DNA of 40,119 nt. It comes from Candidatus Woesearchaeota archaeon. GTDB lineage: Archaea > Nanobdellota > Nanobdellia > Woesearchaeales > GW2011-AR4. Location of the stretch: the NCBI GenBank assembly GCA_016784195.1, contig JADHVE010000002.1:1-40119 (forward strand), in the 5' to 3' direction. A program made the translations under genes and the position numbers. Of this stretch, positions 2-33,895 are shown piece by piece; position 1 is the stretch's first letter; each line of letters opens with the position of its first letter. Under the pieces are notes generated by a model. That model did not search any database and was not told the origin of the DNA. It saw only the letters and a program-made list of their open reading frames with translations.

Positions 2-1048
2 TCTTTTAACTTCTTGCAGTTCTTCGTTTAATCTTTCCATTTCGAACTGTTGTACTTTCTTTTTAGGTCTATGCCTGTCAATAGCCAGGAAATTTACATA
101 TTTATCTATTTCATCAGAACTAGGTTTATGTCCTAATCTTGCGTTTACTTCATCTGTAGTCCATCCTTTTTTAAGAAGATCACAAGCCATCCCTGACCTT
201 AAATCCTTCCAGGTTGTACGTTGACCGCCAGGAATACATTTAATTTCTGTCTTTTCAACAAGTCTATTAATTATCTTTTTTGCATTTGCATATTCAAAAT
301 CAAATAATTTTACTCCATCTTCTAAACCTTTTAAATACAAGTCTAACAGTTCTACAGTTTCAGGATAATTGGTTATTTCACTTCTCGCTTTACGTGATCG
401 CTTTAATATTTCTTTCCTCAGATTTATTCTATATTCTGGTTCTTTAGTGTATGGGTTATTTTGCCTTAAGAAATCATTTTTTTTCAGTTGTAATATTGCG
501 TTTATATTTTCTCCAATATCCCAACATAACCATAATAAAACTCGATGATGCTGTTTATAAGAACTATTAACAATAATTCTAAAACTTTCTTCTTGAATAA
601 ATCTTACATCCTCCTTATTATTATTTCCAGTATATTTAATTACTTCTTTTGCTAACTCAATCTTTCCAGCTAACTCAAAAGGCCGGCTCTTGAATACTTT
701 GGAATAATAAGAACCACTCAAATTTTGATAAGGCTTATTATATCTATTTAAAATAATACCATCTTCTAAATCATCATACACTTTTTTAATATCTTCTTTT
801 GTTAATTTTATCCAGGATTTATTATTAAAGAATCTGTTAGCATTTTTAAACATCCTAACATAAGCGTACAAGGTCTTTGCATTGCCTTCATCTAAAGCCC
901 TCAAATTCCTGATACGCTTCAATTTATATTCTTCTTCTTCAAAGAACTTGCTGAATAATTCTCTATTTTCTCTGCATATTGCAGAATCACTTAACAATTT
1001 ATCTTTTGCTTTCAAGTATCTATTAAGAAAAGTTGCTTTTTGTTTCAT
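2..1048 (-). CDS. Tyrosine recombinase/integrase, 3' end outside the window
   Basis: Not in the ORF track because there is no stop in the window. Manual translation from ATG 1048: MKQKATFLNRYLKAK...WDIGENINAILQLK...WKDLRSGMACDLLKKGWTTDEVNARLGHKPSSDEIDKY. This has the box II xxLR, LGH and Tyr pattern and starts 74 nt past the tRNA 3' end. Confidence 0.85.
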   Translation of the reverse strand, partial: MKQKATFLNRYLKAKDKLLSDSAICRENRELFSKFFEEEEYKLKRIRNLRALDEGNAKTLYAYVRMFKNANRFFNNKSWIKLTKEDIKKVYDDLEDGIILNRYNKPYQNLSGSYYSKVFKSRPFELAGKIELAKEVIKYTGNNNKEDVRFIQEESFRIIVNSSYKQHHRVLLWLCWDIGENINAILQLKKNDFLRQNNPYTKEPEYRINLRKEILKRSRKARSEITNYPETVELLDLYLKGLEDGVKLFDFEYANAKKIINRLVEKTEIKCIPGGQRTTWKDLRSGMACDLLKKGWTTDEVNARLGHKPSSDEIDKYVNFLAIDRHRPKKKVQQFEMERLNEELQEVKR

Positions 1049-4993: not shown

Positions 4994-5518
4994 TTATTTA
5001 TATACCTTGCTAAAAATCCCTACAAAAACCTCTTTAGGAATCTCAATGCCAGCCTCAACAAAAGCCTTTGCTAGATTATAGCCATCTTCCCTTTCATCCC
5101 CTTTGAACCTGAACCTTAACAGCCTTCCCAGAGTAAACGAGTTCAATAATCCCTCATTCAACTTTAAACTAACCTCTCTATTGCCTTTTGAAACCTTCTT
5201 ATTTAAAAAATCAACAGAAAATTCACTTTTATCAACATCATACCTTAAAAACTCCCACTCAACAAGATTTTTTAATATCTTCTCCTTGTAATTTTTATCC
5301 AGGTACGCATCAATATTATCTATTTTTAAATATTCAAAAAAATCAACATCTTTTACCTTAGAGAAAGAATAAACCCTGCCTAAATACTTCTTTACCTTCT
5401 GTCTGGAGCCTTTGCCCTTTCCCTTAACACTCCGTTTATACCATTTATTATCTACAAGGTAAGCATAAGGATATATTTTCCCTTTTTTATTCTTGATATT
5501 CTTTACACGAATAAACAT
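4994..5518 (-). CDS. Putative DNA-binding protein with IS1634-transposase-like N-terminus, no DDE domain
   Basis: MFIRVK...YAYLVDNKW...RQKVKKYLGR resembles the IS1634-family N-terminal motif; the protein is only 174 aa. Confidence 0.6.
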   Translation of the reverse strand: MFIRVKNIKNKKGKIYPYAYLVDNKWYKRSVKGKGKGSRQKVKKYLGRVYSFSKVKDVDFFEYLKIDNIDAYLDKNYKEKILKNLVEWEFLRYDVDKSEFSVDFLNKKVSKGNREVSLKLNEGLLNSFTLGRLLRFRFKGDEREDGYNLAKAFVEAGIEIPKEVFVGIFSKVYK

Positions 5519-5526
5519 AGAATTAG

Positions 5527-5577
5527 TTAGGCACTATAAAATTATATAAACTTTTCGATTTAATGACTCTAAAACCC
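5527..5577. repeat. Duplicated motif, copy 1 (TTAGGCACTATAAAAT...CTCTAAAACCC)
   Basis: 16-nt and 11-nt exact blocks also occur at 11751 and 11792, with offsets of 40 and 41 nt. Confidence 0.75.
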
Positions 5578-5599
5578 CAAAAAAATGCCTTCTCAGGCC

Positions 5600-6190
5600 T
5601 TACATCTCCTTAACAACTTCACCATCAGGGCTTTTTTCAGAAAAAACCTCTGTCTGGAACTTATATACTCTGCAGGCATCAAAATCTTTCCAGGTATCAG
5701 CTGGCAATCCAGCCTTCATACATGTCTGCTGTAAAAACATCAAAGCATCCCATTTCTGTTCAATAGCCACAATAGGCAACAATAAACCGGAGTTAAAAAC
5801 ACCTCTAACCAACAAACCATCTTTGCCTATCTGTATCTGCCTTAAATAATCATCTGCATTCCTCACATTCATCACACTTGGATTAGTCAAAACAGACACA
5901 CTGATCGTTATTTGTTCAAGTTCTTCTCTGCCCAAAGGAGGAAACCTAGGATCAGAAGAAGCGCTAACAGCAGAATCCGCAACAGCCCGGTAAAGCGGAT
6001 AAGCAGCCTCGGTAATTCCTATACACCCTCTTAACACATTATTCTTCTCTAAAGTAACAAAAGCTCCGCTTAGCAATGAAAATTCTTTTTTAGTACCATC
6101 CTTGATTTTCAGATTTTTTTTGAAAACATAAGAAGAAATAGCCTGCCTTGCCAGCTTAACAAGTTTTGTGCCTTGCTCTAAGCTTAACAT
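5600..6190 (-). CDS. AMMECR1-domain protein
   Basis: GAFVTL, LRGCIG, DPRFPPL, GLLLP, KAGL. Confidence 0.93.
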   Translation of the reverse strand: MLSLEQGTKLVKLARQAISSYVFKKNLKIKDGTKKEFSLLSGAFVTLEKNNVLRGCIGITEAAYPLYRAVADSAVSASSDPRFPPLGREELEQITISVSVLTNPSVMNVRNADDYLRQIQIGKDGLLVRGVFNSGLLLPIVAIEQKWDALMFLQQTCMKAGLPADTWKDFDACRVYKFQTEVFSEKSPDGEVVKEM

Positions 6191-9444: not shown

Positions 9445-10110
9445 ATGGCAAAAAAATTCAACGAATATTACCTTAATTGGGATGAAATAAGCCAGATAAT
9501 TACAGCAGCAAAAAATCTTAAGGAAAGTGTTGTTCTAAAAATCTTAGCTCGAACAGGTATGCGTAGATTTGAGCTTGCAAATATCAAGGTTAAAAATGTT
9601 GATTTTGAAAGAAAGAGAATATTTATTGAGAAAGGTAAGGGAGCAAGCCAAAAAGACTCAAAATCAAGAACAGTTCCTGTTGATAATGACACTCTTCAGT
9701 CAATCAAATTCTACATAGAAAGCCGAAAAACAGGCTTTTTAATACAAAGCAACAACAAAATCAAGGACGGCATAAGTTTGAGCCAGATCAACAGAATTGT
9801 AGATAACTGTGCAAAAAAAGCCAATATAAAAAACCCCAATCCTAAGCTCAAAAACATGAACCCTCATATATTCCGCCATAGCTTCTCCAGGCTTAGCTTA
9901 GCAGCAGGAATACCCTTCAACATGGTGCAGAGAATAGCAGGCCATGCTGATGCCCGAACCACTCTACAGATGTACGGCATTCCCTCTATAACCGATACAC
10001 AGCAGCTATACGAGGAAAAGCTCGTTGAAAGGTTCAAAGAAAAGCCAAAGAGCAAAGAGGATGTTAAATTGACTAAGTTTACAGATAAAAACAATCAAAA
10101 ATCTTCTTGA
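9445..10110 (+). CDS. Xer-like tyrosine recombinase, catalytic domain only
   Basis: TGMRRFEL (R), GKG (K), HIFRHSF (HxxR), AGH and TTLQMY (Y) are all intact. 221 aa with no N-terminal core-binding domain. Confidence 0.92.
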   Translation: MAKKFNEYYLNWDEISQIITAAKNLKESVVLKILARTGMRRFELANIKVKNVDFERKRIFIEKGKGASQKDSKSRTVPVDNDTLQSIKFYIESRKTGFLIQSNNKIKDGISLSQINRIVDNCAKKANIKNPNPKLKNMNPHIFRHSFSRLSLAAGIPFNMVQRIAGHADARTTLQMYGIPSITDTQQLYEEKLVERFKEKPKSKEDVKLTKFTDKNNQKSS

Positions 10111-17576: not shown

Positions 17577-17628
17577 GATTTCTAGGCAGAGGGGTCTCAA
17601 AGTCCCCTCTACTCCGACATATATTTTT

Positions 17629-17755
17629 AATTCCTGTTAAGTTCGTTTCCCATACGAAGTGTGGGAAACCTGAGTCTGCAGAGTAAAATTTGAGTTCCCA
17701 ATAAATTCGAGCCAAAGGCGAGTGTAAATGTCCGAAGGACTAGGGGGTTCCGTTC
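17629..17755 (+). repeat. Structured intergenic repeat related to the spacers at 25-32 kb
   Basis: Begins AATTCCTGTTAA, contains GTTTCCCATAC-GAA-GTGTGGGAAAC, and ends in a block homologous to 28217-28263. Confidence 0.7.
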
Positions 17756-23786: not shown

Positions 23787-23909
23787 GCCAGGATGACGGA
23801 GCTCGGTTAATCGTGTTCGCCTCGAATAGCATAAATGTTTTTCATTTATAATTTTCAAAAGAGAGCGAATGTCCTTCGGGACACGCAGGTTCAAATCCTG
23901 CTCCTGGCG
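23787..23909 (+). tRNA. tRNA-Ser(CGA) with an intron at 37/38 (about 23827-23863)
   Basis: GCCAGGA/TCCTGGC acceptor, TTCGC/GCGAA anticodon stem, TGTCC-TTCG-GGACA variable arm. The BHB is weak. Confidence 0.88.
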
Positions 23910-24194: not shown

Positions 24195-24378
24195 TGCCGC
24201 TGGCGGTACTCTCAAATCCTAAGGGATTTATAGTATCCCTTGAGGATATTCGAAACCACGACCTCTACGTAACCCAGTTAGACTTGAGTTAATCATCTCC
24301 CAAAGGGATCATCGCTCAAATTTATGAGCCTCGCTTCATCAAAGATGTAGCGCTCTAACCAGGCTGAGCTACAGCGGC
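24195..24378 (-). tRNA. tRNA-Met(CAT), probably elongator, with three introns: 30/31 (24330-24346), 37/38 (24271-24322), 59/60 (24209-24248)
   Basis: GCCGCTG/CAGCGGC acceptor. Removing the introns gives stem CTACG/CGTAG, loop CT-CAT-AA and T arm GTGGT-TTCGAAT-ACCGC. Central helices are CGCT/AGCG, CTCA/TGGG and TTCG/TGAG. Confidence 0.9.
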
Positions 24379-24477: not shown

Positions 24478-24888
24478 CTATAAAAACTTCTTAATATTCT
24501 CTTTATACTCCTCAATCTCTTTATTCCCGTATTTCTTATGGCTCCAGCTTAACCTTAATCTATCACCTTTAAACCTTGGAATAATATGGATATGTGCGTG
24601 TTGGACTAATTGCCCTGCGTCTTCACCATTATTCATAACCATATTGTAAGCGCCATTCCCTATAGACAAAGATAAAGCCTTGGTAATATTCTTAACAGCC
24701 TTAATCAACTCACTTAAATTTTCACCAGGGATGTCTAATAAGGTTTCATAATGTTTTTTTGGAATCACTAAACAATGCCCTTTGTTAGCAGGCATTATAT
24801 CCAGAAAGCTTATCACATTGCTATCTTCATAGACAATTGACGCAGGGATTTCTTTATTTATAATTTTGCAGAATATACAGTCTTTCAT
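24478..24888 (-). CDS. HIT-family hydrolase
   Basis: DCIFCKI, GHCLVIPKKH, HAHIHIIPR. Start placed at MKDC. Confidence 0.94.
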   Translation of the reverse strand: MKDCIFCKIINKEIPASIVYEDSNVISFLDIMPANKGHCLVIPKKHYETLLDIPGENLSELIKAVKNITKALSLSIGNGAYNMVMNNGEDAGQLVQHAHIHIIPRFKGDRLRLSWSHKKYGNKEIEEYKENIKKFL

Positions 24889-25236
24889 CTTAATATTTAT
24901 GTAATATTTCCTGCCTAGCAAAATGATCAGCCCATCAACTTATTCAATCAAATTTAGGGGCAGTAAACTCTGTTATTTCAATTCCACCTGCTAATCCAGC
25001 TAGGCAGCATTTATTAAACATTCACTCATTATTTATCTCAAACCTATATACATTTTAGTAGCATCTGGTTTGTCTAATTGCCGGGCTACGCTTTTCAATT
25101 CTATTGCAGATGGTTATTGTTCAACTGGAATATCATTCATTTTATTCCATCTACACATCTCAATAGACAAGAATATCTGGTGATTTTTAAACCTTTTGTC
25201 CCTCCCCTTTTTTTAGTGTTAATCTTTGATTGGATT

Positions 25237-25272
25237 CAATATCAGAAAGTGTGGTTAAATCCTTCCGCTAGG
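25237..25272 (+). repeat. Degenerate spacer-repeat copy
   Basis: CAATATCAGAAAGTGTGGTTAAAT compared with TAATATCGGAAATTCCCGTTAAAC. Confidence 0.5.
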
Positions 25273-25343
25273 AAAGAGGAATAGTCTACAATACGGTTTG
25301 GCAAAGCCAAAAAATTCCGAAGAGTTTTATTGTGATACATTTA

Positions 25344-25688
25344 CTAAGATGGTTCTATTCGTGTAACACTTTGATTTCCAATTTGTAAATGTTGAAGAAT
25401 ATAAGATTCAATATAAGGTTCAGGATCGTCTTTATAGAATTCAATTATTATACGATCTGTTTTTACTCCTTTTAGTAATCGCTCAATCAATTTATCTTCT
25501 GGAGAAAGTTTAATATCTCTTTTAATATTAACTAAACCATCTGGCCTATTTAAATCATATTTCACCCATACTTCTTTTCCAGCATATTGTTTTAAAATAT
25601 CTCTAGCTGTTGTAATAATATCTTTATTACAATATGATTCATACATTCTTTCAGGAGCAAATCCTTGGAAATTTTCAAAGTGATCCAT
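25344..25688 (-). CDS. Hypothetical protein
   Basis: 114 aa ORF with TTTATAAA upstream. Confidence 0.6.
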   Translation of the reverse strand: MDHFENFQGFAPERMYESYCNKDIITTARDILKQYAGKEVWVKYDLNRPDGLVNIKRDIKLSPEDKLIERLLKGVKTDRIIIEFYKDDPEPYIESYILQHLQIGNQSVTRIEPS

Positions 25689-25955
25689 ATTAGTTGTTAC
25701 TTACAAGTGATTTATAAAACTTTTGATTATCACCACCATAAAAATTGAATATAATATCCACGCTTGTTAGTTTTGTTTTTGGTTATTAAGTTCCGAAAAC
25801 CTACGTCCGTAGGACTCTGGGGCGTTATTTTACATGGGTTTTTTGTTTGTGTTAAAGGGAGGATGGATATATTGTATTTAACGATTGATGTACTTACTGT
25901 TGAATAGCAATAGATGGAAAGATTTATTAACTCAACTCTAGTCCTTACTTTTTAT

Positions 25956-27191
25956 ATGTTTAAACTAAATGTAGAAAAAAATTTAAAGAATCTCCTTGCT
26001 CAGGCTGACATCAAGATAAATACAGATGATCCAAGCAGACAATGGGACATACAAGTTCATAAATCAGAATTCTACGATAGAGCCATTAGAGGTGGAACAC
26101 TTGCTTTTGGAAGGTCATACATGGAAGGATGGTGGGACTGCCAAGATCTTACAGATTTTTTTACAAAAGTCTTAGAGGTAAGGCTTGAAGATAAAGTTAG
26201 TGGCATCATGGCTCTGTTAAATAGTTATAGGGCTGGAGGTCTTAATGAAGAAGGAAAGGCCTCTGTAAAGATGATATACAATGCATGGCTTAACAATCCT
26301 CAGGATAATGATGGCTCTCTTAAGGTTGGAACAACACACTATGATGCAGGAAACGATTTGTTTCAGGCAATGCTTGGTGAATCAATGACTTATACATGCG
26401 GTTACTGGCAAAAGTCAGAGCAGGGATTATGGAAAGCAGCAGAAACTCTTGAAGAAGCACAAGATCACAAGCTTGATATGATCTGCAAAAAATTAGACCT
26501 TGAGGCGGAAGATACGGTTCTTGATATTGGCTGCGGATTCGGAAGCTTTGCAAAGTATGCTGCTGAAAAATATGGTGCAAAAGTAGTAGGTATAACTATC
26601 TCCCAAGAACAGCTTGATTTTGCAAAAGAGGATTGTAAAGACCTTGATGTAGAGTTTGTTTTTCATGATTATCTCAAATTGTCCAAACCTCCTGCATTAG
26701 CGGGTCATCTATTTGACAAGATTGTCTCAATTGGCATGTTTGAGCATGTAGGCTCAAAAAATTATAGCAATTACTTCAAGTTTGTTGACGAGCATCTCAA
26801 ACAAGGAGGCATATCTCTCATTCATACCATTGGAAACGATAAAGAAACAAAAATGTGTGAGCCATGGACTGCTACTTATGTATTCCCGAATTCTAACCTT
26901 CCAACAGAGCGACAGATAAGAAAAACCAAGCCAGGACATTTTTTTGAGCAGGATTTTCATGAATTTGGAAAGGGCAATTATGATCCCACCATAAAAATAT
27001 GGCATGATAATCTAATGGAAGCATGGAGCGAACTTTCTGCAGGCAACAAGAAACATACTGAGAAATTCAGGCGTATGTTTAAATACTATCTTAATGGCAG
27101 CGAGGCTCTTTTCAAATCAGGCCAAGGACACCTATACCAATTTGTCTATTCAAAAGGAGAATTAAAACCATCTTATAAGATAGTACGTTAA
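25956..27191 (+). CDS. cfa: Cyclopropane fatty acyl phospholipid synthase family methyltransferase
   Basis: YMEGWWDC, HYDAGNDLF, MTYTCGYW, LDIGCGFG, SIGMFEHVG, YVFP. Start likely MFKL. Confidence 0.9.
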   Translation: MFKLNVEKNLKNLLAQADIKINTDDPSRQWDIQVHKSEFYDRAIRGGTLAFGRSYMEGWWDCQDLTDFFTKVLEVRLEDKVSGIMALLNSYRAGGLNEEGKASVKMIYNAWLNNPQDNDGSLKVGTTHYDAGNDLFQAMLGESMTYTCGYWQKSEQGLWKAAETLEEAQDHKLDMICKKLDLEAEDTVLDIGCGFGSFAKYAAEKYGAKVVGITISQEQLDFAKEDCKDLDVEFVFHDYLKLSKPPALAGHLFDKIVSIGMFEHVGSKNYSNYFKFVDEHLKQGGISLIHTIGNDKETKMCEPWTATYVFPNSNLPTERQIRKTKPGHFFEQDFHEFGKGNYDPTIKIWHDNLMEAWSELSAGNKKHTEKFRRMFKYYLNGSEALFKSGQGHLYQFVYSKGELKPSYKIVR

Positions 27192-27465
27192 AAATTTGTT
27201 TTTTCTATAATCTTTTTTTACTCATCTTTTCTTTTTTCGTTAAACTTTCAGGGAGTTTATTCCACCTAGTCCTGTCTGATATGCGCATTTTGTATAGGTG
27301 AGATATGCCATATTTAAAGTTTGATGTTGTTTAGCCCAGAACTCTTACTATCTTATTATCTTCAAGCCCCTGATTCTCATTATTAGTTTTTAGCCCCTTA
27401 TTCCGTTTTAGTTTATAATAAAAGATATTGATTTTTTTATATGGAATTGATCATTTAAAATTTTA

Positions 27466-27984
27466 CTATTTTTTCTTGATACGAGAAAAATTTTTAATTG
27501 GATTTCCCCATATCTTCGAATTTGGAATAGTAACAAATACCTGATCATCAGTTATAACAATACATGAAGATATACCCATTTCTTTGACAGTACCCTTTAT
27601 GCTTACAACCTCGACAGATTCTCCAATTTTCATTGGTTTGTTTATTAGAAGGAATATGCCGGCAGTAAGGTTAGATAAAACATCTTTGGTTGCGAACCCA
27701 ATAATAATCCCCATGGCACCCAAGCCAGCAACGAAACCAGTCACGTTGAAACCAAGATTGCTTAAGACTATTATGATAAAAATAACCCAAAGAAATATTT
27801 TAACTATTTTTTCTATAAACACTTCCAAGGTTCGATCAAGATCTACTTTATCAAAAAAGTGAGTTACATATTTACTAATAATATGAATTGCAACAAACCC
27901 ACCAATAAAAATTATAATAAAAAAGAGCCATTGAGTATAATGTCCAAAAAAATAATTTTGTATATTAGCCAATATTTCTATCAT
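27466..27984 (-). CDS. Short MscS-family mechanosensitive channel
   Basis: GIIIGFATKDVLSNLTAG, GTVKEMG, IPNSKIW. Confidence 0.9.
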   Translation of the reverse strand: MIEILANIQNYFFGHYTQWLFFIIIFIGGFVAIHIISKYVTHFFDKVDLDRTLEVFIEKIVKIFLWVIFIIIVLSNLGFNVTGFVAGLGAMGIIIGFATKDVLSNLTAGIFLLINKPMKIGESVEVVSIKGTVKEMGISSCIVITDDQVFVTIPNSKIWGNPIKNFSRIKKK

Positions 27985-28216
27985 TTTTGCCCCTATTTTA
28001 TTGAGTATCCAATAATTTTTATTTGTTTTTAGTAAATGTTTTTATTCCTAAGTCAAAGTCTTCATTAGATAATTCTTCAACCAATTCTTGTTATTTAATA
28101 TTCTCCAAATCATCTTTATCCATTATAAGCGTCCTCTGATCATTAAAAATAACATAATCCTATATAAATGTTAACATTAAAGATAATTCCACATATAAGT
28201 ATTCTCTTAACAAATA

Positions 28217-28263
28217 TCGCACGAAGTGAGTGAATATGTGCGTAGCACTAGGAGGCTCAGTTC
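28217..28263 (+). repeat. Twin GNA-triloop hairpin repeat
   Basis: TCG-CAC-GAA-GTG-AGTGAATAT-GTGC-GTA-GCAC-TAGGAGGCTCAGTTC, homologous to 17707-17755. Confidence 0.7.
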
Positions 28264-28301
28264 TATTTGAGAATCAAAGAGGAAGGCTAAAAATTATTTA
28301 T

Positions 28302-29600
28302 TTACCGCCTTCTATGACTATGTTTAAATCTACTCCCAAATTTAGCATGTTTAGAAAATGATCTTTTATTTTTTGATATGGGGTTAGATTTATGTTTAAA
28401 TCTGGAATTTCTACCAACCTGTTTTTTTGGCGGCGGTTTAGCTGCTGCACCTACTGCGTTTTTAGCAGTTTCTGAATGAAAGGTATGGTCCATAACTTCT
28501 ATTTTTTGCCTTATTAATTTCTCAATATCTCTAAGATAATTCCTTTCATCGGCTGCGCAAAATGAAAATGCTGTTCCATCAGCCCCTGCTCTGGCAGTTC
28601 TTCCAATTCTGTGAATATAGCTTTCCGGTTCGTTTGGAAGTTCAAAATTTATAACATGTGAAATATTATCTATATCTATTCCCCGCGCAGCAATATCAGT
28701 TGCAACTAATACTTTAATTCTGCCATTTTTGAAATTTTTAATAGCTTGATTTCTCGCATTTTGTGATTTATTTCCATGAATTGCATCAGAGAATATATTA
28801 TTTTTGCTAAGAAATAATGCTAATTTATTTGCCCTATGTTTTGTTCGAGTGAAAATTAAAACACGGGTAAGATGTTTCTGTCTTAGAAGTTCGAGTAATA
28901 AATCTTCTTTTGAAGGTTGGTCAATAAAAAATAGGTATTGTTTTACACTCTCAACTGTTGTTGCCTGAGGTGCTACTTCAACATGAATAGGATTTTTAAG
29001 TAAAGTTTTTGCAAGATTATTAATTTCCCGGGACATTGTTGCTGAGAAAAATAATGTCTGTCTTTTTTGTGGTAATCTTGTGATTATTTTTTTAATATCA
29101 TTGATGAAACCCATATCAAGCATTCTATCTGCTTCATCTAATACAAAAAATTCTATATTATTAAGACTAAGTTTTCTTTGATTCATCAAATCTAGTAACC
29201 TACCCGGTGTTGCCACAAGAATATCTACCCCACGAGCTAATGCATGAACTTGTTTTCCCTGGCTCACCCCTCCAAAAATTACAGTGTGTTTAAATTTAAG
29301 AAACTCACCGTATGCAGAAAAACTTTCTCCAATTTGTGCAGCAAGTTCTCGAGTTGGAGCAAGTACTAAAGTCTTAATTATTCTTGGATATTTCTCAGTC
29401 ATCCTTTGCAGTATAGGTAATACAAATGCTGCGGTTTTACCAGTACCTGTTTGTGCAATACCTATCAAATCTTTGCCTAGTAATAAATCAGGGATTGATT
29501 TTGATTGTATTGGTGTAGGTATAGTATACCCTTGTTTAGTTAGCGCTCTTTCGAGTGGAGGTATCAAATTCAGATCTTTAAATAGTAAGGTATTATCCAT
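28302..29600 (-). CDS. DEAD-box RNA helicase, RhlE-like
   Basis: Q motif, [29 protein letters not shown], basic tail. Confidence 0.95.
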
Positions 29601-29669
29601 TATAGCCTAAAATATGCATTGAGTTATAAATGTAAGCTTATTATTGATGTAACTAATGGTGCAAATATA

Positions 29670-30209
29670 TTAATTTAGTTCTCTTTTTAAAATTTTATGG
29701 GCAGAATTTATTTTCTTAAATTTTTCTGTGTTTCCATTGGGCATATCAGGGTGATGTTCTTTTGAAAGATTTTTGTAGTTTTTGTGCATTGTTTCAAAAT
29801 CTGTTGAGGATTCTTCTACACCAAGAATTTCTCTTGCATTTTTTCTTTGTTCAATAATATCATTATCTTCCACAAATAATTTTAAGAATTCTTCCTGAGT
29901 TATTTTATCCTCACTTAAAAGATCAATGAAATACTTAATAACCTGTGCAACCATAGCTAAGTTTTCAACAAACTTTGTAGATCTATTATAACTAAAGAAT
30001 AAATGTTCATTCCACATATACCATGAAGCTGAGGCCTGCGCTTTTCGTATTGTAATACTCTCTAGGGGAATATCCATATCGTCTTCAGTCAACCCAAAAA
30101 CTTTTAGGTAGCCTATTATCTTGTTCTTATATTGCAAAGCTCTTCGATTGTACGAGTCACGAATAGCTATTTGTTTGAAATCATAACCTTTAATATTTAT
30201 CATAGACAT
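29670..30209 (-). CDS. Protein with C-terminal J domain
   Basis: AREILGV...YKNLSKEHHPD...FKKINSAH. Confidence 0.88.
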   Translation of the reverse strand: MSMINIKGYDFKQIAIRDSYNRRALQYKNKIIGYLKVFGLTEDDMDIPLESITIRKAQASASWYMWNEHLFFSYNRSTKFVENLAMVAQVIKYFIDLLSEDKITQEEFLKLFVEDNDIIEQRKNAREILGVEESSTDFETMHKNYKNLSKEHHPDMPNGNTEKFKKINSAHKILKRELN

Positions 30210-30262
30210 CGTTATCCTTATCCTATTTATAAGGTTAACTGTAGCTATTTAAACACAATCTA

Positions 30263-30305
30263 GTATAACATCGGAAATTCCTGTTAGATGAATCATCCCC
30301 TACTA
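30263..30305 (+). repeat. Spacer-repeat copy
   Basis: GTATAAC-ATCGGAAATTCCT-GTTAGAT. Confidence 0.75.
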
Positions 30306-30507
30306 GCGTGCAGTTCAGTTATGATTTTATCGTCAAAGAAGCAGATATTTAACAATTTACAGAATGTTAAAAAATTAAGTTGCTAAGCGTAGCGGGGGTG
30401 AGTCAAGAAAAAGACGTCTTTCACAGAGTGAAACAATACGTTTAGTAAAAGAAGAAAAGGGCAAAAACAAAAAATTTATATTGGTTTTCTCATTTTAAAG
30501 TAATAAA

Positions 30508-31074
30508 ATGTCTGCTAATGGTAATCAACCTCACTTCACGTATAATCTCCATATAACCAATACTGGAGGATATCATCATGATGTTAGTAATTTAACTCTT
30601 CCATTTATATTAACTGTAAATAATCCGTTGAACCTTACTACACAAGATACAACGAAAGAACCAATAAATGTTGGCAATGTAGTAAGGGCGAGCCATGGTG
30701 GGGGTTTAGATCCAAAGAGAAGGGAATCTCATCTTGTTCTTGAAAGCCAATTAAGCGAAGATGAGCTTGGAAAGCTTTTTGAAAATGGTAAATATCTAGA
30801 TGTTAATTCTTATGGTCCGGATTTTAAATTTAATATTTTTGCTGAAAGAAAAGGTGAAGGCAGAATACAAATCAAAGGTGTAACATTTGCTAAACCATTT
30901 CAACCAGGTGATTATGTAAGTATTGATGAGTATAGTGAGATAGGAAGAGTAAAAAGAATTAGTTTTCCCATTGGACCAGGAGTAAAAGAAACTAATCCAA
31001 CTGCTCTGGTGCGAACAATATGGGATATTGAAACCTTAGTTAAACTTCATGATAGATACAGGGGTTGGAAGTAA
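30508..31074 (+). CDS. Hypothetical protein
   Basis: 188 aa ORF with TTTATA about 30 nt upstream. Confidence 0.65.
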   Translation: MSANGNQPHFTYNLHITNTGGYHHDVSNLTLPFILTVNNPLNLTTQDTTKEPINVGNVVRASHGGGLDPKRRESHLVLESQLSEDELGKLFENGKYLDVNSYGPDFKFNIFAERKGEGRIQIKGVTFAKPFQPGDYVSIDEYSEIGRVKRISFPIGPGVKETNPTALVRTIWDIETLVKLHDRYRGWK

Positions 31075-31102
31075 TTGTTTTTGCTCTCTTAACGTTTTTA
31101 GC

Positions 31103-31187
31103 CTTTTTCTCGATTTTGTCTAATATCGGAAATTCCCGTTAAACTCTTTCCCCCTACGAGGTGAGGTCAAACTTCGTCCGAAAAGTA
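31103..31187 (+). repeat. Spacer-repeat copy, about 85 nt
   Basis: CTTTTTCTCGATT, TAATATCGGAAATTCCCGTTAAACTCTTT, AAACTTCGTCCGAAAAGTA. Confidence 0.8.
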
Positions 31188-31250
31188 GAGAAAAAGACCG
31201 TCCAATCAAGCATGAAGTGCTATCAAGGAAAAGAATAAAAGTGGAAAAAG

Positions 31251-31796
31251 TTAAAAAAAGCAGAATATACCTATAAGAATAAATAAAATACCGGCTATAT
31301 ATGAAATAACTCTTCGATTTATTTTTTGTACAATAAACTTACCTAAGTATACAGCTATTATTGATAAAATGATTAATACAGAGATTACACCTAAAAAAAC
31401 CATCAATGTATCGTATTTTGTGGCAAATAATCCTGAAGCAATTTGAGTCTTATCTCCCATTTCTGATATTAAAATAATTGCAAATCCTGTTAGGAAGGGT
31501 TTTTTTAAATCACATTTAGATTCATCTTCCTTATTGTTTACTAAATTGGTTATCCCAAAAATAATAAAAATAATTCCTGAGATTATTTTTATATAATATA
31601 TTGGAACAATATTTGTAATGTAATTTCCTAAAAGGATAGCCAAACCATCTGTTATAATGAATGCTAAAATAACACCGGCCAATAATGGGAGGTATTTTTT
31701 TGTTTTGGAAGCTAAACAAATTACAGCAAGTTGGGTCTTATCACCTAGTTCTGCTAGTCCCACAGCAATAAATGGAATAATAAAATCTTGCATCAT
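31251..31796 (-). CDS. TMEM165/GDT1-family transporter
   Basis: Two E(L/M)GDKTQ motifs. Confidence 0.94.
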   Translation of the reverse strand: MMQDFIIPFIAVGLAELGDKTQLAVICLASKTKKYLPLLAGVILAFIITDGLAILLGNYITNIVPIYYIKIISGIIFIIFGITNLVNNKEDESKCDLKKPFLTGFAIILISEMGDKTQIASGLFATKYDTLMVFLGVISVLIILSIIAVYLGKFIVQKINRRVISYIAGILFILIGIFCFF

Positions 31797-31858
31797 AATT
31801 GACTATATCAAGCGATTATTAATAAATTTAACTTTTTCCGCTATTCTAATTTTCATGT

Positions 31859-31941
31859 CTTTTTCTCGATTAGCATAACATCGCAATTGTTGTTAAACTC
31901 TTTGCCCATACCTAGTATGTAAAAATTTCGACCGAAAAGTA
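31859..31941 (+). repeat. Spacer-repeat copy, about 83 nt
   Basis: CTTTTTCTCGATT, TAACATCGCAATTGTTGTTAAACTCTTT, AAATTTCGACCGAAAAGTA. Confidence 0.8.
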
Positions 31942-32093
31942 AAATTTCCATTTCCAATAGATTCTACCGAAGGCAGACTAAAGTTTAATGGTCTGTTCAG
32001 TCTATCATTAGAGCGTTAGCGGTACTTCAAGAGAAATAATCAAAGTGCACACTCAATAAGGGATAATAACTAATAAAACAAATTGGAATTGAC

Positions 32094-32771
32094 TCATAGG
32101 CATTTAAGGTAAGTACCTTCGTTTAATTTAGAATAACCTTGTGTGATTAATGCTTCTCTAATTGAATCTACTTTATCAGAGGTGGGGTCTATAATAAGTG
32201 CACCTAAGGATTTATTTGATTGGAATAATCTTTTTGATACAACTTCTAAGGTAGGCAAATCTGCTGAAAATCTTTGGTCTGTTAAATATTTTAGAAAGTT
32301 TATACAGAAAATTACATCATAACTATCCGGAGGAATGTCTTGAATTCCTAACACACCAAATCTAAGATTTTTGGCAATATCAGGTTTAGATTCAACCATT
32401 GTTTTTCCATTTGAACCAAGTTCTCTAAAATATCTCAGTCTATCTTCTGCAGTCAGATTTGACCAATGATACTCATAATTTGAATGTGGATCACCAATAA
32501 TCTGACCTGAAGTTGGACAAATAAAATATTGACCCATTTTAGCAGCTTCAATGGCTTCCCTATCTGTATCAAATCCTGACATATTATATTTATATCCTTC
32601 TTTTTCTAGTCCTATTGCAATTGCCAATGCCTCTATGCCAGTAGAACAAGGAACTGTGGCTACTTGTAATGGAATTACATTTGCAAATATTGGAAGTACT
32701 TCTTCTTTCAATGATTCAATAAGGGAGGGATGCCTGTTAAATCCTGTGATTCTCCACACTTTTTCTGCCAT
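32094..32771 (-). CDS. CheR-like SAM methyltransferase
   Basis: PCSTGIEALAIA, GFD, AKMGQY and YDVIFCINFLKYL resemble CheR motifs. Confidence 0.75.
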   Translation of the reverse strand: MAEKVWRITGFNRHPSLIESLKEEVLPIFANVIPLQVATVPCSTGIEALAIAIGLEKEGYKYNMSGFDTDREAIEAAKMGQYFICPTSGQIIGDPHSNYEYHWSNLTAEDRLRYFRELGSNGKTMVESKPDIAKNLRFGVLGIQDIPPDSYDVIFCINFLKYLTDQRFSADLPTLEVVSKRLFQSNKSLGALIIDPTSDKVDSIREALITQGYSKLNEGTYLKCL

Positions 32772-33111
32772 AAATTAAATACAAAAGAGATCATATATAA
32801 ACCTTTCTATCTGTTACTACTATATAATAACATTATTATTAACTGAAGTCTTTCTGAGTGTGCCCCTATCTATAATAAATCATTTGCAGAGCAAAAGACA
32901 ATATGTGATTTAGGACGAATAGACCTGTTTTTAACTATTTATAACTCAAATTTTATTGAACTTAACATGTACAACCAGTTAGGGGTGCACCATTTATAAT
33001 ATGGTTAAGTGAAATAGATTTAGAAAATTTAAGATACTATCCGATAGAAATTGTAGGGCTTGAGCCTGAAAAAGGTTTAATTTAAATATTCTAGTTGATT
33101 AATGGACAAAA

Positions 33112-33702
33112 ATGATAGAATCCATAATTTTTAGCAATGATTTTTTTTTGTATGTAGTTGTCCCTTTTTTAATATTTATCAGTAGAATTATTGACGTCAG
33201 CATTGGAACAATTAGGATCATTTTTGTTTCAAAAGGATATAAAATTTATGCTCCAATCCTCGGTTTTTTTGAGGTATTAATCTGGTTGATAGTCATTAGT
33301 CAGATTATGAATAATCTTTCGAATTTTTATTGTTATTTTGCATATGCTGCTGGTTTTGCTGCTGGAAATTTTGTTGGAATGGTAATTGAGGAAAAATTAT
33401 CTATAGGTAAATCTATAGTCAGGATAATTACAGGCAGAGATTCTTCATCTTTATTGAAAAATCTAAAAGATGCGAGATTTACTGTAACAAGCATGGGCGC
33501 AGAAAGTCCTGATGGAAATGTTCGATCAATATTCACGGTAGTAAAAAAGCAGGATATCCCTAGGGTTATCCAAATAATCAAAGATTTTAATCCCAAGGCA
33601 TTCTATACCCTAGAAGACGTAAGATATGCATATGAAGGTCCTACTATAAATCCGGAAAGGAAGCGTTTTGGGATGATGCAGTTTTTTAGGAAAGGGAAAT
33701 AG
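33112..33702 (+). CDS. DUF2179/UPF0316 membrane protein
   Basis: RIIDVSIGTIR, GFFEVLIW, YAAGFAAGNFVG, NPKAF. Confidence 0.88.
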   Translation: MIESIIFSNDFFLYVVVPFLIFISRIIDVSIGTIRIIFVSKGYKIYAPILGFFEVLIWLIVISQIMNNLSNFYCYFAYAAGFAAGNFVGMVIEEKLSIGKSIVRIITGRDSSSLLKNLKDARFTVTSMGAESPDGNVRSIFTVVKKQDIPRVIQIIKDFNPKAFYTLEDVRYAYEGPTINPERKRFGMMQFFRKGK

Positions 33703-33728: not shown

Positions 33729-33846
33729 TGGACCAGCCGGGATTTGAATTTCCGTGCTGAAAACACTTTTCGAGCATCCCGGAGTCTTTCCCAGTCCAGT
33801 ATCTAAAAAGCCAAGGGAACACGATACCGGATTTCGCCACTGGCCC
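33729..33846 (-). tRNA. tRNA-Ala(GGC) with two introns: 37/38 (33794-33808) and 53/54 (33749-33777)
   Basis: GGGCCAG/CTGGTCC with G3:U70, TTCCC/GGGAA anticodon stem. The 53/54 intron has BHB central helix TCCG/CGGA. Confidence 0.9.
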
Positions 33847-33895
33847 ATTATCAAATTTAGAATAACATCTAATTTAAAAATATTCTCATTAAGAA

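Follow-up and report, generated by a model that had tools for sequence, protein, structure and literature searches.

A conserved folded element interspersed with the accessory genes of variable genome regions in Woesearchaeota

Introduction

Self-cleaving ribozymes can cluster near small genes. The attC sites of integrons are 55–141 nt in length. Archaeal integrons were detected with the standard attC model, and their sites are described as sharing the bacterial attC fold (Ghaly et al., 2022; PMC9668308). A dif-type site comprises two 11-bp arms and a 6-bp spacer (PMC2958812).

The locus studied here lies on a 40,119-nt stretch of DNA (the window) from a Woesearchaeota-like genome of 1.09 Mb. 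An earlier note had read a short repeat recurring between its accessory genes as the recombination-site-like repeat of a non-classical gene-cassette system. That observation is partly confirmed and the interpretation is partly supported. The motif forms the first stem (H1) of an undescribed, strongly conserved and far larger element, which also comprises helices H2 and H3 and a variable tail. Copies of this element sit between the accessory genes of variable genome regions in Woesearchaeota, where they appear to mark joints of gene modules that vary from lineage to lineage.

As in integron arrays, including those that lack an integrase (CALINs) and archaeal integrons, co-oriented repeats lie between single genes or small groups of genes in variable regions. 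Conserved AAC..GTT feet enclose a variable terminal structure, folding is strand-specific, toxin–antitoxin-like pairs are among the cargo and copies are closer to those of other genomes than to their neighbours. Unlike integrons, the system has no integron integrase and no platform, its arrays occupy several loci and its genes face either way. H1 measures 12–24 nt in 93 of 98 copies, shorter than attC, lacks an L box and the 7-nt R-box pairing, and is accompanied by a large conserved H2–H3–tail outside the hairpin. Xer-dependent integrated elements (IMEX) and pdif modules also form tandem arrays split by site copies, and a host Xer-type recombinase could serve modules without a recombinase of their own; XerA-type genes, two of them typed, lie 2–13 kb from an array in nine genomes (a raw count, mostly from one genus). 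Site architecture sets dif apart, since the foot spacing of the element is highly variable and its arms are 4–5 bp. REP/RAYT and IS200/IS605-derived palindromes are likewise intergenic, strand-specific hairpins in genomes encoding Y1 transposases, but the element is much longer, with several helices, its copies are few, diverged and away from Y1 genes, and its hairpins are unlike IS ends. With large structured noncoding RNAs it shares conserved core helices with inserts of variable length and GNRA-like loops and, as with clustered ribozymes, it is present several times over in the gene-poor gaps that variable regions contain; it differs in that no Rfam family matched at E up to 1 and no known catalytic core was recognised. 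The element is not a canonical attC, a dif site, a REP, a MITE or a member of an Rfam family.

Results and discussion

The island and its genes

The genes of the island and its flanks are as follows.

24478–24921, minus strand: left flank, HIT-family protein (HxHxH motif), conserved in relatives at 66–75% nucleotide identity
24922–33728, no strand: variable island lying as an insertion between the HIT and tRNA genes, comprising nine accessory genes and, in the gaps, copies of the element
25344–25688, minus strand: cargo, 114-aa protein of no family
25914–27191, plus strand: cargo, cyclopropane-fatty-acyl synthase-like methyltransferase (PF02353, 5.5e-73)
27466–27984, minus strand: cargo, small MscS-type mechanosensitive channel (PF00924, 3.9e-19)
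28302–29600, minus strand: cargo, DEAD-box helicase (PF00270, 1.7e-53)
29670–30209, minus strand: cargo, J-domain protein (PF00226, 1.7e-11)
30508–31074, plus strand: cargo, 188-aa protein of no family
31251–31796, minus strand: cargo, GDT1-family cation transporter between two core copies of the element (PF01169, 2.3e-42)
32094–32771, minus strand: cargo, CheR-like SAM methyltransferase (PF01739, 1.8e-12)
33112–33702, plus strand: cargo or edge gene, DUF5698/DUF2179 membrane protein (PF18955, 1.4e-23)
33729–33848, minus strand: right flank, intron-bearing tRNA-like gene with its 3′ end facing the island (by eye)

The stretch at about 24.9–33.7 kb is an insertion, because its flanks are 55–400 bp apart in several relatives (G001, of the same genus, G006, G008, G017 and G021); in G002 the gap is about 2.2 kb. 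The region is a lineage-specific accessory-gene insertion, in keeping with the earlier interpretation. The tRNA-like gene is conserved in relatives and metagenome loci and was called by neither ARAGORN nor Rfam; no repeat of the tRNA 3′ end was found at the far side of the island. The DEAD-box helicase gene shares 80–82% nucleotide identity with G003 and G030, whereas the flanking HIT gene reaches 75% in G001, which belongs to the same genus. On contig C41, synteny with five of five relatives stops 55–75 nt ahead of the first copy, and on contig C35 it stops at the gene immediately ahead of the first copy. A fixed platform locus was not found: relatives are without the element at the loci that hold arrays in this genome.

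Copies of the element in the window

The following copies and fragments were located, with bit scores from covariance model R1.

17608–17686, plus strand: copy without the 5′ half of H1 (50.3 bits), absent from the earlier list and beyond its range
25214–25330, plus strand: degenerate copy with a different right-hand module, type C (nhmmer E 0.019; R1 E 0.85)
25738–25817, plus strand: core copy upstream of the cyclopropane-fatty-acid synthase gene (61.9 bits)
28190–28290, plus strand: tail-only fragment in the MscS/DEAD-box gap, by eye against long-form tails (ATATGTGCGTAGCAC..GAGTTC)
30252–30321, plus strand: diverged core copy, H1 30266–30286 (26.2 bits, E 4e-4; nhmmer 6.4e-11)
31107–31188, plus strand: core copy with leader, H1 31121–31141, H2 and H3 (73.1 bits; pattern match)
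31862–31942, plus strand: core copy with H1 31876–31895, H2 and H3 (73.6 bits)

The recurrence is real: the pattern TAAYATC-N8-9-YGTTA matches three times in the window against 0.05 expected, a number reached in 0 of 100 shuffles, and seven times across the whole genome. The three strong copies lie at the positions given earlier, all on the plus strand, and the direct repeats of about 85 nt described around the GDT1 gene were recovered as nhmmer envelopes 31101–31189 and 31857–31943, with 74% identity across a 57-nt stretch. The ranking of the copies changes. The copy at 30263 is correctly placed, but its score does not bear out its strength; that at 25752, called weak, is strong; the degenerate copy at 25234 is weak; and the one at 32963 was undetected by nhmmer or the covariance model at E up to 10. 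By eye, the sequence at 32963 resembles a leader plus H1.

The tail of the 31107 copy extends to about 31236 and has BLAST matches in other genera. The conserved tail of the 31862 copy reaches about 32006; positions 31885–31987 share 88% identity over 103 nt with a copy in another family (G100), and BLAST matches to this copy were obtained in 36 of 151 genomes of the order. A tail-like stretch of the 30252 copy (30406–30481) matches other loci, including G001:C5 at 88%, and positions 25254–25331 match G026, G030 and contig C27 of the same genome.

Structure of the element

In order from the 5′ end, the element has a leader (AUUG, unpaired), H1 (UAAC/GUUA feet, which are invariant, and an apex of from about 4 nt to a domain of ∼170 nt), H2 of ∼11 bp with one conserved U–G pair, H3 of 4 bp and a variable tail built of hairpin units. 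AAAATTG stands at a fixed distance from TAAC, and the TAAC–GTTA distance is variable, with values of 12–84 nt and more. Long forms have an H1 with ∼11 additional pairs, the sequences of which differ among genomes with complementarity kept (by eye), and about 170 nt are inserted between its halves. The loops are GNRA- or GNA-like, and there are many C(GNA)G mini-hairpins, which are unusually stable in DNA. Core identity between families is up to 88%.

Among 98 distinct model-aligned copies, 87.6% of pair cells are paired, against 30–62% in slid controls, and 238 cells are changed on both sides in a compensatory manner, against 14–45; 0 of 500 shuffles match this. The corresponding pairing in 14 hand-chosen copies was 84.6%, against 29–48%. 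At one position of H2, U–G outnumbers every other pair (51 of the 98 copies), and C-to-U changes in TAAC preserve a U–G pair in 24 copies. The conserved U–G pairs identify the folding strand as the one that reads TAAC..GTTA.

Finer attC-like features fared less well. The fold proposed for the short hairpin has no stability beyond that of shuffles (mean −1.1 versus −1.3 kcal/mol in 71 copies, none of which beat 95% of shuffles). At the right ends the GTTA foot is nearly invariant, but neither the full GTTRRRY fit nor the pairing with a left box was upheld; complementarity past the 4–5 bp of TAAC/GTTA is no better than in shuffles, and an L box was not found. The motif is not a stand-alone site but belongs to a larger multi-helix element, of a kind that an attC-like site could do without. 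Perfect palindromes of at least 6 nt occur inside H1 in 24 of 62 cases (10.3 expected), with sequences that vary from copy to copy. No conserved promoter was found; a CCCC..TTTAG box stands at a fixed distance in only nine of 46 canonical copies.

Distribution and arrangement

The core model gave 23 matches in this genome (E up to 1) and, among 101 relatives, matched 63 (E up to 1e-3; 1–12 copies each). In a phylum-wide sample the element was present in 47 of 151 genomes, including four that belong to other orders within the class. Within the order, most genomes have a single BLAST match, and in 22 of 40 loci fetched from relatives the element is at most 1 kb from a contig end.

Neighbouring copies no more than 6 kb apart are co-oriented in 27 of 27 pairs (matches from this genome, the relatives and the phylum sample, with G012 left out), so the claim of a common orientation irrespective of gene orientation holds. 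That of a single gene between strong copies is correct for 30263 to 31118 and for 31118 to 31873, but four genes separate the copies at 25738 and 30252. Similar co-oriented arrays, with 1–6 small genes between copies, are found in other genera.

Proposed joints between modules

Stretches of homology common to different genera start on the GTTA side of H1. In multi-copy genomes, 58 of 64 copies have their nearest relative in another genome. Genomes of two genera (G191 and G005) share 86% identity over 1353 nt from TTCYTGTTA, spanning two cargo genes; left of this block, H1 is long-form in one genome and short in the other, and the sequences are unrelated. G186 and G002 share 93.5% over 247 nt from CTTGTTA. 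Left-flank similarity shows no correlation with that of the right part (r = 0.02 over 4753 pairs). Any conserved element whose apex varies and whose upstream DNA is unrelated would also yield blocks starting at GTTA, and many of the 180 blocks may therefore say nothing about recombination.

Our preferred reading, held tentatively, is that the structured element, which may act as an RNA, as a DNA fold or as both, heads exchangeable gene modules joined at H1. Modules would move from one lineage to another, taking with them whatever lies right of the GTTA foot in the element, and would accumulate head to tail, in one orientation, in lineage-specific islands such as that at 24.9–33.7 kb. Arrays may grow when an incoming module recombines at H1 with an element already in place, with a growth logic that could be integron-, Xer- or IMEX-like; the agent might be a host XerA-type tyrosine recombinase or homologous exchange between copies. 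The H2–H3–tail would work as a putative transcribed structured RNA attached to each module. Several results stand against this reading: the short H1 is thermodynamically unstable and its stem is not extended above chance, searches gave no conserved promoter, fixed platform or dedicated recombinase, shared blocks do not have their right ends at the next H1, and in the paralogous unit C34 versus C2 the joints are off the GTTA foot, after H3 and at the H1 apex.

Alternative explanations

A structured noncoding RNA family without a role in recombination, whether independent genes or cis-acting leaders or trailers, is a rather unlikely alternative. Its copies would have reached flexible islands by hitch-hiking with acquired genes or by local duplication, and tandem duplication or replication-direction bias would account for their orientation. 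The covariation of several helices, the U–G pair, the loop types and the core identity between families all agree with this, as do the single matches in most genomes and the long forms, which resemble a large RNA with optional domains. The right-hand part of type A, which is short and resembles a two-way terminator, points the same way; four of its five copies face a convergent gene. The uniform orientation of close copies is harder to reconcile with RNA alone, because the intervening genes are unrelated and face either way, the genes downstream of long forms are inconsistent and three copies in this genome have both neighbouring genes on the opposite strand. Left and right parts are mosaic even between the 93.5%-identical copies, and Rfam offers no family.

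An exclusive role as a recombination site of folded single-stranded DNA, a greatly enlarged and non-canonical counterpart of attC with no RNA function, is improbable. The conserved AAC and GTT feet around an apex of about 4 to about 170 nt, the strand specificity, the mini-hairpins, the palindrome-rich H1 interiors and the co-oriented arrays with toxin–antitoxin-like pairs would suit such a site, but the parts outside H1 (H2, H3 and the tail) show sequence conservation far beyond what structure alone needs, and a specific U–G pair is retained. There is no L box, R-box pairing past 4–5 bp is at chance level and no integron integrase was detected, the best tyrosine recombinases scoring 189–190 bits with the integron-integrase model, for which the cut-off is 265 bits. 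The proposed link to the recombinase at 9445 was not sustained: close homologues occur in only five of 100 relatives, two of which are without the element, and in none of the five is the element near the homologue.

Movement as a non-autonomous single-strand transposon (REP-, PATE- or MITE-like) by Y1 (IS200-type) transposases is very unlikely. The hairpins are strand-specific, this genome has four Y1 transposase genes and the two element-richest relatives have four and eight Y1 matches. Element and Y1 occur together in 37 of 101 genomes (nine with Y1 only, 26 with the element only and 29 with neither), although these are related genomes and not independent samples. G040, G043, G044 and G055, which are 98–100% complete, have the element and no Y1 match. 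The repeats are not ends of the IS200-like elements of this genome, which have their own, different end hairpins and no element alongside; no TnpB was found, and intragenomic copies are old and diverged, with no burst.

A double-stranded promoter or operator, in which the A-rich box with ATTG would be TATA-like, YTGTTA would serve as initiator and a regulator would bind the palindromic core, is scarcely credible: the fixed AAAATTG–TAAC distance, the palindromic cores and, in H1s of 20–21 nt, a box-to-TGTTA spacing compatible with archaeal promoter geometry would fit, but the distance between the feet is far too variable, the cores differ in sequence among copies and a duplex site fails for the long forms, in which the H1 halves covary through ∼11 further pairs across the ∼170-nt insert.

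Repeat pattern and conserved fold

The repeat pattern TAAYATC-N8-9-YGTTA, which the earlier note had picked out in the window, was searched for throughout the genome under study (G000). The observation is sound: three matches lie in the window (30266, 31121 and 31876, all on the + strand) against 0.05 expected, none of 100 shuffled sequences reached three, and there are seven matches genome-wide. The unit is larger than had been seen, however. A profile built from twelve copies found about 25 places in the genome at E < 0.05, all of them intergenic, clustered and co-oriented within each contig. The element has the following parts.

ATTG leader, unpaired
Helix H1, variable inside, its feet being TAAC and GTTA
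Helix H2, about 11 bp
Helix H3, 4 bp
Variable tail

RNAalifold was applied to a clean alignment of 14 copies from nine genomes and predicted H2 and H3, with compensatory changes in six of 11 pairs. When H1 was added for the same copies, 84.6% of the pair cells were standard, versus 29–48% with the partner slid, and 29 cells had changed on both sides, versus 0–6 when slid; none of 500 shuffles reached the observed values. For 19 mixed copies aligned with MAFFT, RNAalifold yielded no structure because the variable parts were misaligned. A larger set of 102 hits (98 distinct) from about 60 genomes was aligned with R1, a covariance model of the element core. In the distinct copies 87.6% of cells pair, versus 30–62% in slid controls, and 238 cells carry double changes, versus 14–45, with compensatory changes in 15 of 20 pairs; this alignment was fitted to the model and is hence biased towards the pairs of the model. 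U-G is the most frequent pair at one H2 position (51 of 98 copies), and C-to-U changes in TAAC retain a U-G pair in 24 copies, so that the folding strand reads TAAC..GTTA. Conserved secondary structure with compensatory changes on one strand, as a structured non-coding RNA would show, is present.

Helix H1 and comparison with known sites

The feet TAAC and GTTA are almost invariant across copies, and the distance from one to the other ranges from 12 to 84 nt and beyond. Right ends fitting GTTRRRY, like the R boxes in the attC sites of integrons, had been noted; at the five additional pairs beyond the feet, only about 41–70% of cells are paired, and 39–95 of 500 shuffles reach the observed measures. 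A hairpin had also been drawn for the short H1. Its energy is the same as that of shuffled sequences, and the short H1 alone is not a convincing hairpin. Perfect palindromes of at least 6 nt occur in 24 of 62 H1 interiors, against 10.3 expected and a maximum of 19 in 500 shuffles, and a TC step is frequent after TAACA. attC sites, which are about 55–141 nt in total length, pair an inverse core RYYYAAC with a core GTTRRRY over 7 nt, which the element does not. They also carry an L''/L' box with extrahelical bases, whereas no second box was seen in the element, whose H1 spans 12–24 nt in 93 of 98 copies. The Xer/dif, IMEX or pdif site is 28 bp long, with two 11 bp arms and a 6 bp spacer, in contrast to the variable spacing between the feet of H1. 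A MITE would be expected in numerous, nearly identical copies that have terminal inverted repeats and target duplications, whereas the copies of the element are diverged.

Long forms in some relatives and on contig C29 of G000 were inspected by eye. They carry an insert of about 170 nt within H1, the halves of which form about 11 further pairs; the sequence differs between genomes and the complementarity is kept. H2 sometimes has inserts as well, and the tail is a row of hairpin units. In two relatives' loci (L040:1620–1800 and L031:1640–1760) these are tandem units of about 50–58 nt, GGGGAGUUC..stem..C(GNA)G loop..stem..GAACA. By eye, the succession of GGGGAGUUC, hairpin and GAACA loosely recalls H/ACA guide hairpins. 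A riboswitch or leader was considered and rejected, as the genes downstream of long forms are unrelated (Na/H exchanger, nucleotidyltransferase, HTH proteins and proteins of no family).

A short right-hand module is almost identical in five copies of G000.

C27:20531
C35:12140
C35:15153
C41:11680
C43:11640

Its two hairpins have runs of T and A on their flanks, and it looks like a two-way terminator; a convergent gene faces four of these copies.

Distribution and known families

R1 finds 23 places in G000 at E ≤ 1 and 16 at E ≤ 1e-3, the highest count among the genomes compared. At E ≤ 1e-3, 63 of 101 relatives have the element, with 1–12 copies each (relative G012 is included in the tallies of window matches, element, Y1 transposase and recombinase over relatives). 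Across the phylum R1 found it in 47 of 151 sampled genomes, four of them from other orders of the class, and of the 151 genomes of the order searched by BLAST with one window copy, 36 gave hits, mostly a single one. The best cross-family BLAST identity of the window copy is up to 88% over 103 nt. Of the genomes of the order that were sampled, between about one third and two thirds carry the element.

An Rfam search at E ≤ 1, which covered the window and 11 loci from relatives, gave no match over the element and returned only two intron-bearing tRNAs, both from the window. Locus L034 of G155 was omitted from this search, from the alignments and from the model; it was among the long forms inspected and supplied one Pfam query, and none of the conclusions rests on G012 or G155. 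The literature on archaeal integrons and cassettes and on DPANN or Woesearchaeota non-coding RNA, covered mostly at the level of titles and abstracts, holds no description of the element at that level; the attC lists of PMC9668308 might already count some of these sites. Viral carriage was rejected: a 16 nt core pattern matched 17 IMG/VR contigs, and the element is in none of them.

Arrays and islands

Clusters of attC sites are co-oriented and less than 4 kb apart. The element is similar in this respect, with 27 of 27 neighbouring copies at most 6 kb apart on one contig in the same orientation (among the R1 matches listed, with G012 left out); all opposite-oriented pairs seen are at least 9.6 kb apart. 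Between copies lie 1–6 open reading frames in either orientation. Many of the proteins in the array cargo belong to no family; the others include PIN and weak ParE/YoeB pairs, NUDIX proteins and Ig-domain proteins. The island of the window and the tRNAs, each with long or multiple introns, are as follows.

24.92–33.73 kb (approximate), island between the HIT gene and an intron-bearing tRNA
1122–1237, − strand, tRNA, found by Rfam and not by ARAGORN
23787–23909, + strand, tRNA, found by Rfam and not by ARAGORN
24196–24378, − strand, tRNA, recognized by eye and not found by ARAGORN
33729–33848, − strand, tRNA, recognized by eye and not found by ARAGORN

The two Rfam calls are 116–123 nt long and both are missed by ARAGORN, which marks them as intron-bearing archaeal tRNAs. 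The two recognized by eye are strongly conserved in relatives (up to 95–100% over 21–63 nt).

The HIT and tRNA flanks of the island are separated by 55–400 bp in G001 (same genus), G006, G008, G017 and G021 and by about 2.2 kb in G002, which makes the nine genes of the island and its element copies an insertion specific to the lineage. C41 and C35 show the same pattern. On C41, all five of the five relatives compared are syntenic up to 10.95–10.97 kb, and the first copy begins at 11.03 kb; on C35, synteny ends at a gene whose end is 78 nt before the first copy. Among 40 relatives' loci chosen by best score, 22 have the element less than 1 kb from a contig end, which fits assemblies broken by repeats or population variation. 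The element may explain where assemblies of these organisms break.

A classical tRNA-targeting island was rejected, since the 3' end of the tRNA has no duplicate at the other side of the island. A conserved platform was also rejected. In 80 metagenome loci with the HIT gene the gap between tRNA and HIT gene runs from 38–72 bp (seven loci) up to 3 kb, and none of them has the element (nhmmer, E ≤ 0.01); nor does an element lie beside the C41-syntenic block in G001, G002, G006 or G008 with filters off.

Within the island, the DEAD-box helicase gene has 80–82% DNA identity to G003 and G030, which belong to another family, and the pair of helicase and J-protein genes (window 28302–30209) is also present in G036. 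For comparison, the HIT gene flanking the island is 75% identical in the same-genus G001. The sequence identities suggest a recent transfer of the pair. No element adjoins the helicase gene or the pair in G003, G030 or G036.

Joints and possible exchange at the element

In multi-copy genomes 58 of 64 copies (ten of 14 in G000) have their closest counterpart in a different genome, and the copies within one genome do not represent a recent burst. Similarity over the left 45 nt before TAAC is uncorrelated with similarity over the 70 nt from TGTTA onwards (r = 0.02, 4753 pairs). Genomes G191 and G005, of different genera, share 86% identity over 1353 nt, starting at TTCYTGTTA and taking in H2, H3 and the tail as well as two cargo genes and the promoter region of these. 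On its left the block is preceded by a long-form H1 in one genome and by a short H1 in the other, and the DNA beyond is unrelated. Similarly, G186 and G002 are 93.5% identical over a block of 247 nt that begins at CTTGTTA and closes with the tail, with long versus short H1 on the left. A small zinc-ribbon gene unit of G000 is found on both C34 and C2 (85% over 294 nt); one end of it lies just past the upstream element's H3 and the other at the apex of the following H1, and the upstream cores are very different. In these comparisons joints lie at the element, but the point varies. Many of 180 shared blocks have their start at the GTTA foot for no other reason than that the apex cannot be aligned and the DNA upstream is unrelated.

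Recombinases

The genome has three tyrosine-recombinase matches.

C30, XerA-type gene, 227.8 bits versus a cut-off of 220, 272 bp from a contig end
Window 9445–10110, + strand, short tyrosine recombinase of 221 residues
Window 2–1048, − strand, weak tyrosine-recombinase match in a 349-residue open frame running off the contig edge, beside the tRNA at 1122–1237

The last of these, together with the tRNA, may be the edge of an integrated element. An integron has IntI with its specific extra domain. None of the three matches reaches the integron integrase model TIGR02249, on which the best recombinases score 189–190 bits, in two stretches, versus a cut-off of 265; on the XerA model they score 219–228 bits versus a cut-off of 220. 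The 9445 recombinase had been put forward as a possible partner enzyme, and this did not hold: close homologues occur in five of 100 relatives, two of which are without the element, and no element is near any of them. These homologues (76–83% identity) come from relatives of different families and have in-frame stops in two cases; the gene looks horizontally mobile. In nine genomes, of which five belong to a single genus, recombinase genes and arrays are 2–13 kb apart; two of these genes are typed as XerA (raw counts). Many XerA-like genes of relatives are less than 1 kb from contig ends, as are many element copies, and the two may be neighbours across assembly gaps.

Y1 transposases

G000 has four IS200-type Y1 transposase genes, comprising three IS200-like copies and a fourth, different Y1.

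C2, about 540–1260
C17, 1–650
C50, about 2280–2900
C16, about 5150–5800

The IS200-like copies have a common left-end hairpin and a right end ...GGAGGTCATTT; one has a disrupted frame. An origin from IS200/IS605 or REP/RAYT elements was rejected, as the ends of the four loci have other hairpins and no element. That the repeats might be the ends of a known IS or MITE had been named among the outcomes that would overturn the cassette proposal; for the resident IS200-like elements this is not so, the hairpins being different. Over 101 genomes, element and Y1 are both present in 37, Y1 only in nine, the element only in 26 and neither in 29, a modest co-occurrence in counts to which related genomes do not contribute independently. 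The element also occurs in several near-complete genomes that lack Y1. In G000, at 88.8% completeness, there was no match to TnpB.

Interpretation

The array had been described as a non-classical gene-cassette system. The logic of that proposal is supported by repeats that are co-oriented, an island that varies, modules that are shared and joints that fall at the repeat. Its particulars are not supported, as the anatomy is not attC-like, there is no integron integrase and no fixed platform, and the 9445 enzyme is unrelated to the element. A fold that is this strong, deep and strand-specific, and in which a U-G pair is conserved, points to a transcribed RNA comprising H2, H3 and the tail. What points to H1 as a site of DNA exchange is the invariance of its AAC/GTT feet, together with its variable apex, its palindromic cores and the joints. 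Tentatively, at somewhat less than even odds, we favour a composite in which H2, H3 and the tail would act as RNA and H1 would be an exchange joint. That the element is RNA alone is a close rival. A conserved fold at module joints, its wide spread and the lack of an Rfam match make the element either a new large archaeal RNA family or a recombination site of a new kind, if not both.

The genomes of DPANN archaea are tiny, and little is understood of how accessory genes are acquired and exchanged by them. It is conceivable, though we consider it rather unlikely, that Woesearchaeota and their relatives have a cassette system without integron integrase, in which the folded element heads each module, H1 serves as the joint through a housekeeping XerA-type or unknown enzyme and the rest is a structured RNA. 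If true, this would be a second, independently evolved form of gene-cassette capture, in very small symbiotic archaeal genomes. The covariance model and the defined joint provide a handle for locating flexible islands in these genomes, and the element makes the movement of modules open to experimental test.

Genomic setting

C67, the contig that makes up the window, belongs to a genome of 1.09 Mb in 73 contigs with about 33% G+C. The window is present in marine and estuary metagenome runs. The RNase P RNA and SRP RNA of the genome sit away from the element copies. The CheR-like gene has upstream of it some 35 nt (window 32793–32830) that recur at 84–96% identity in at least 16 relatives.
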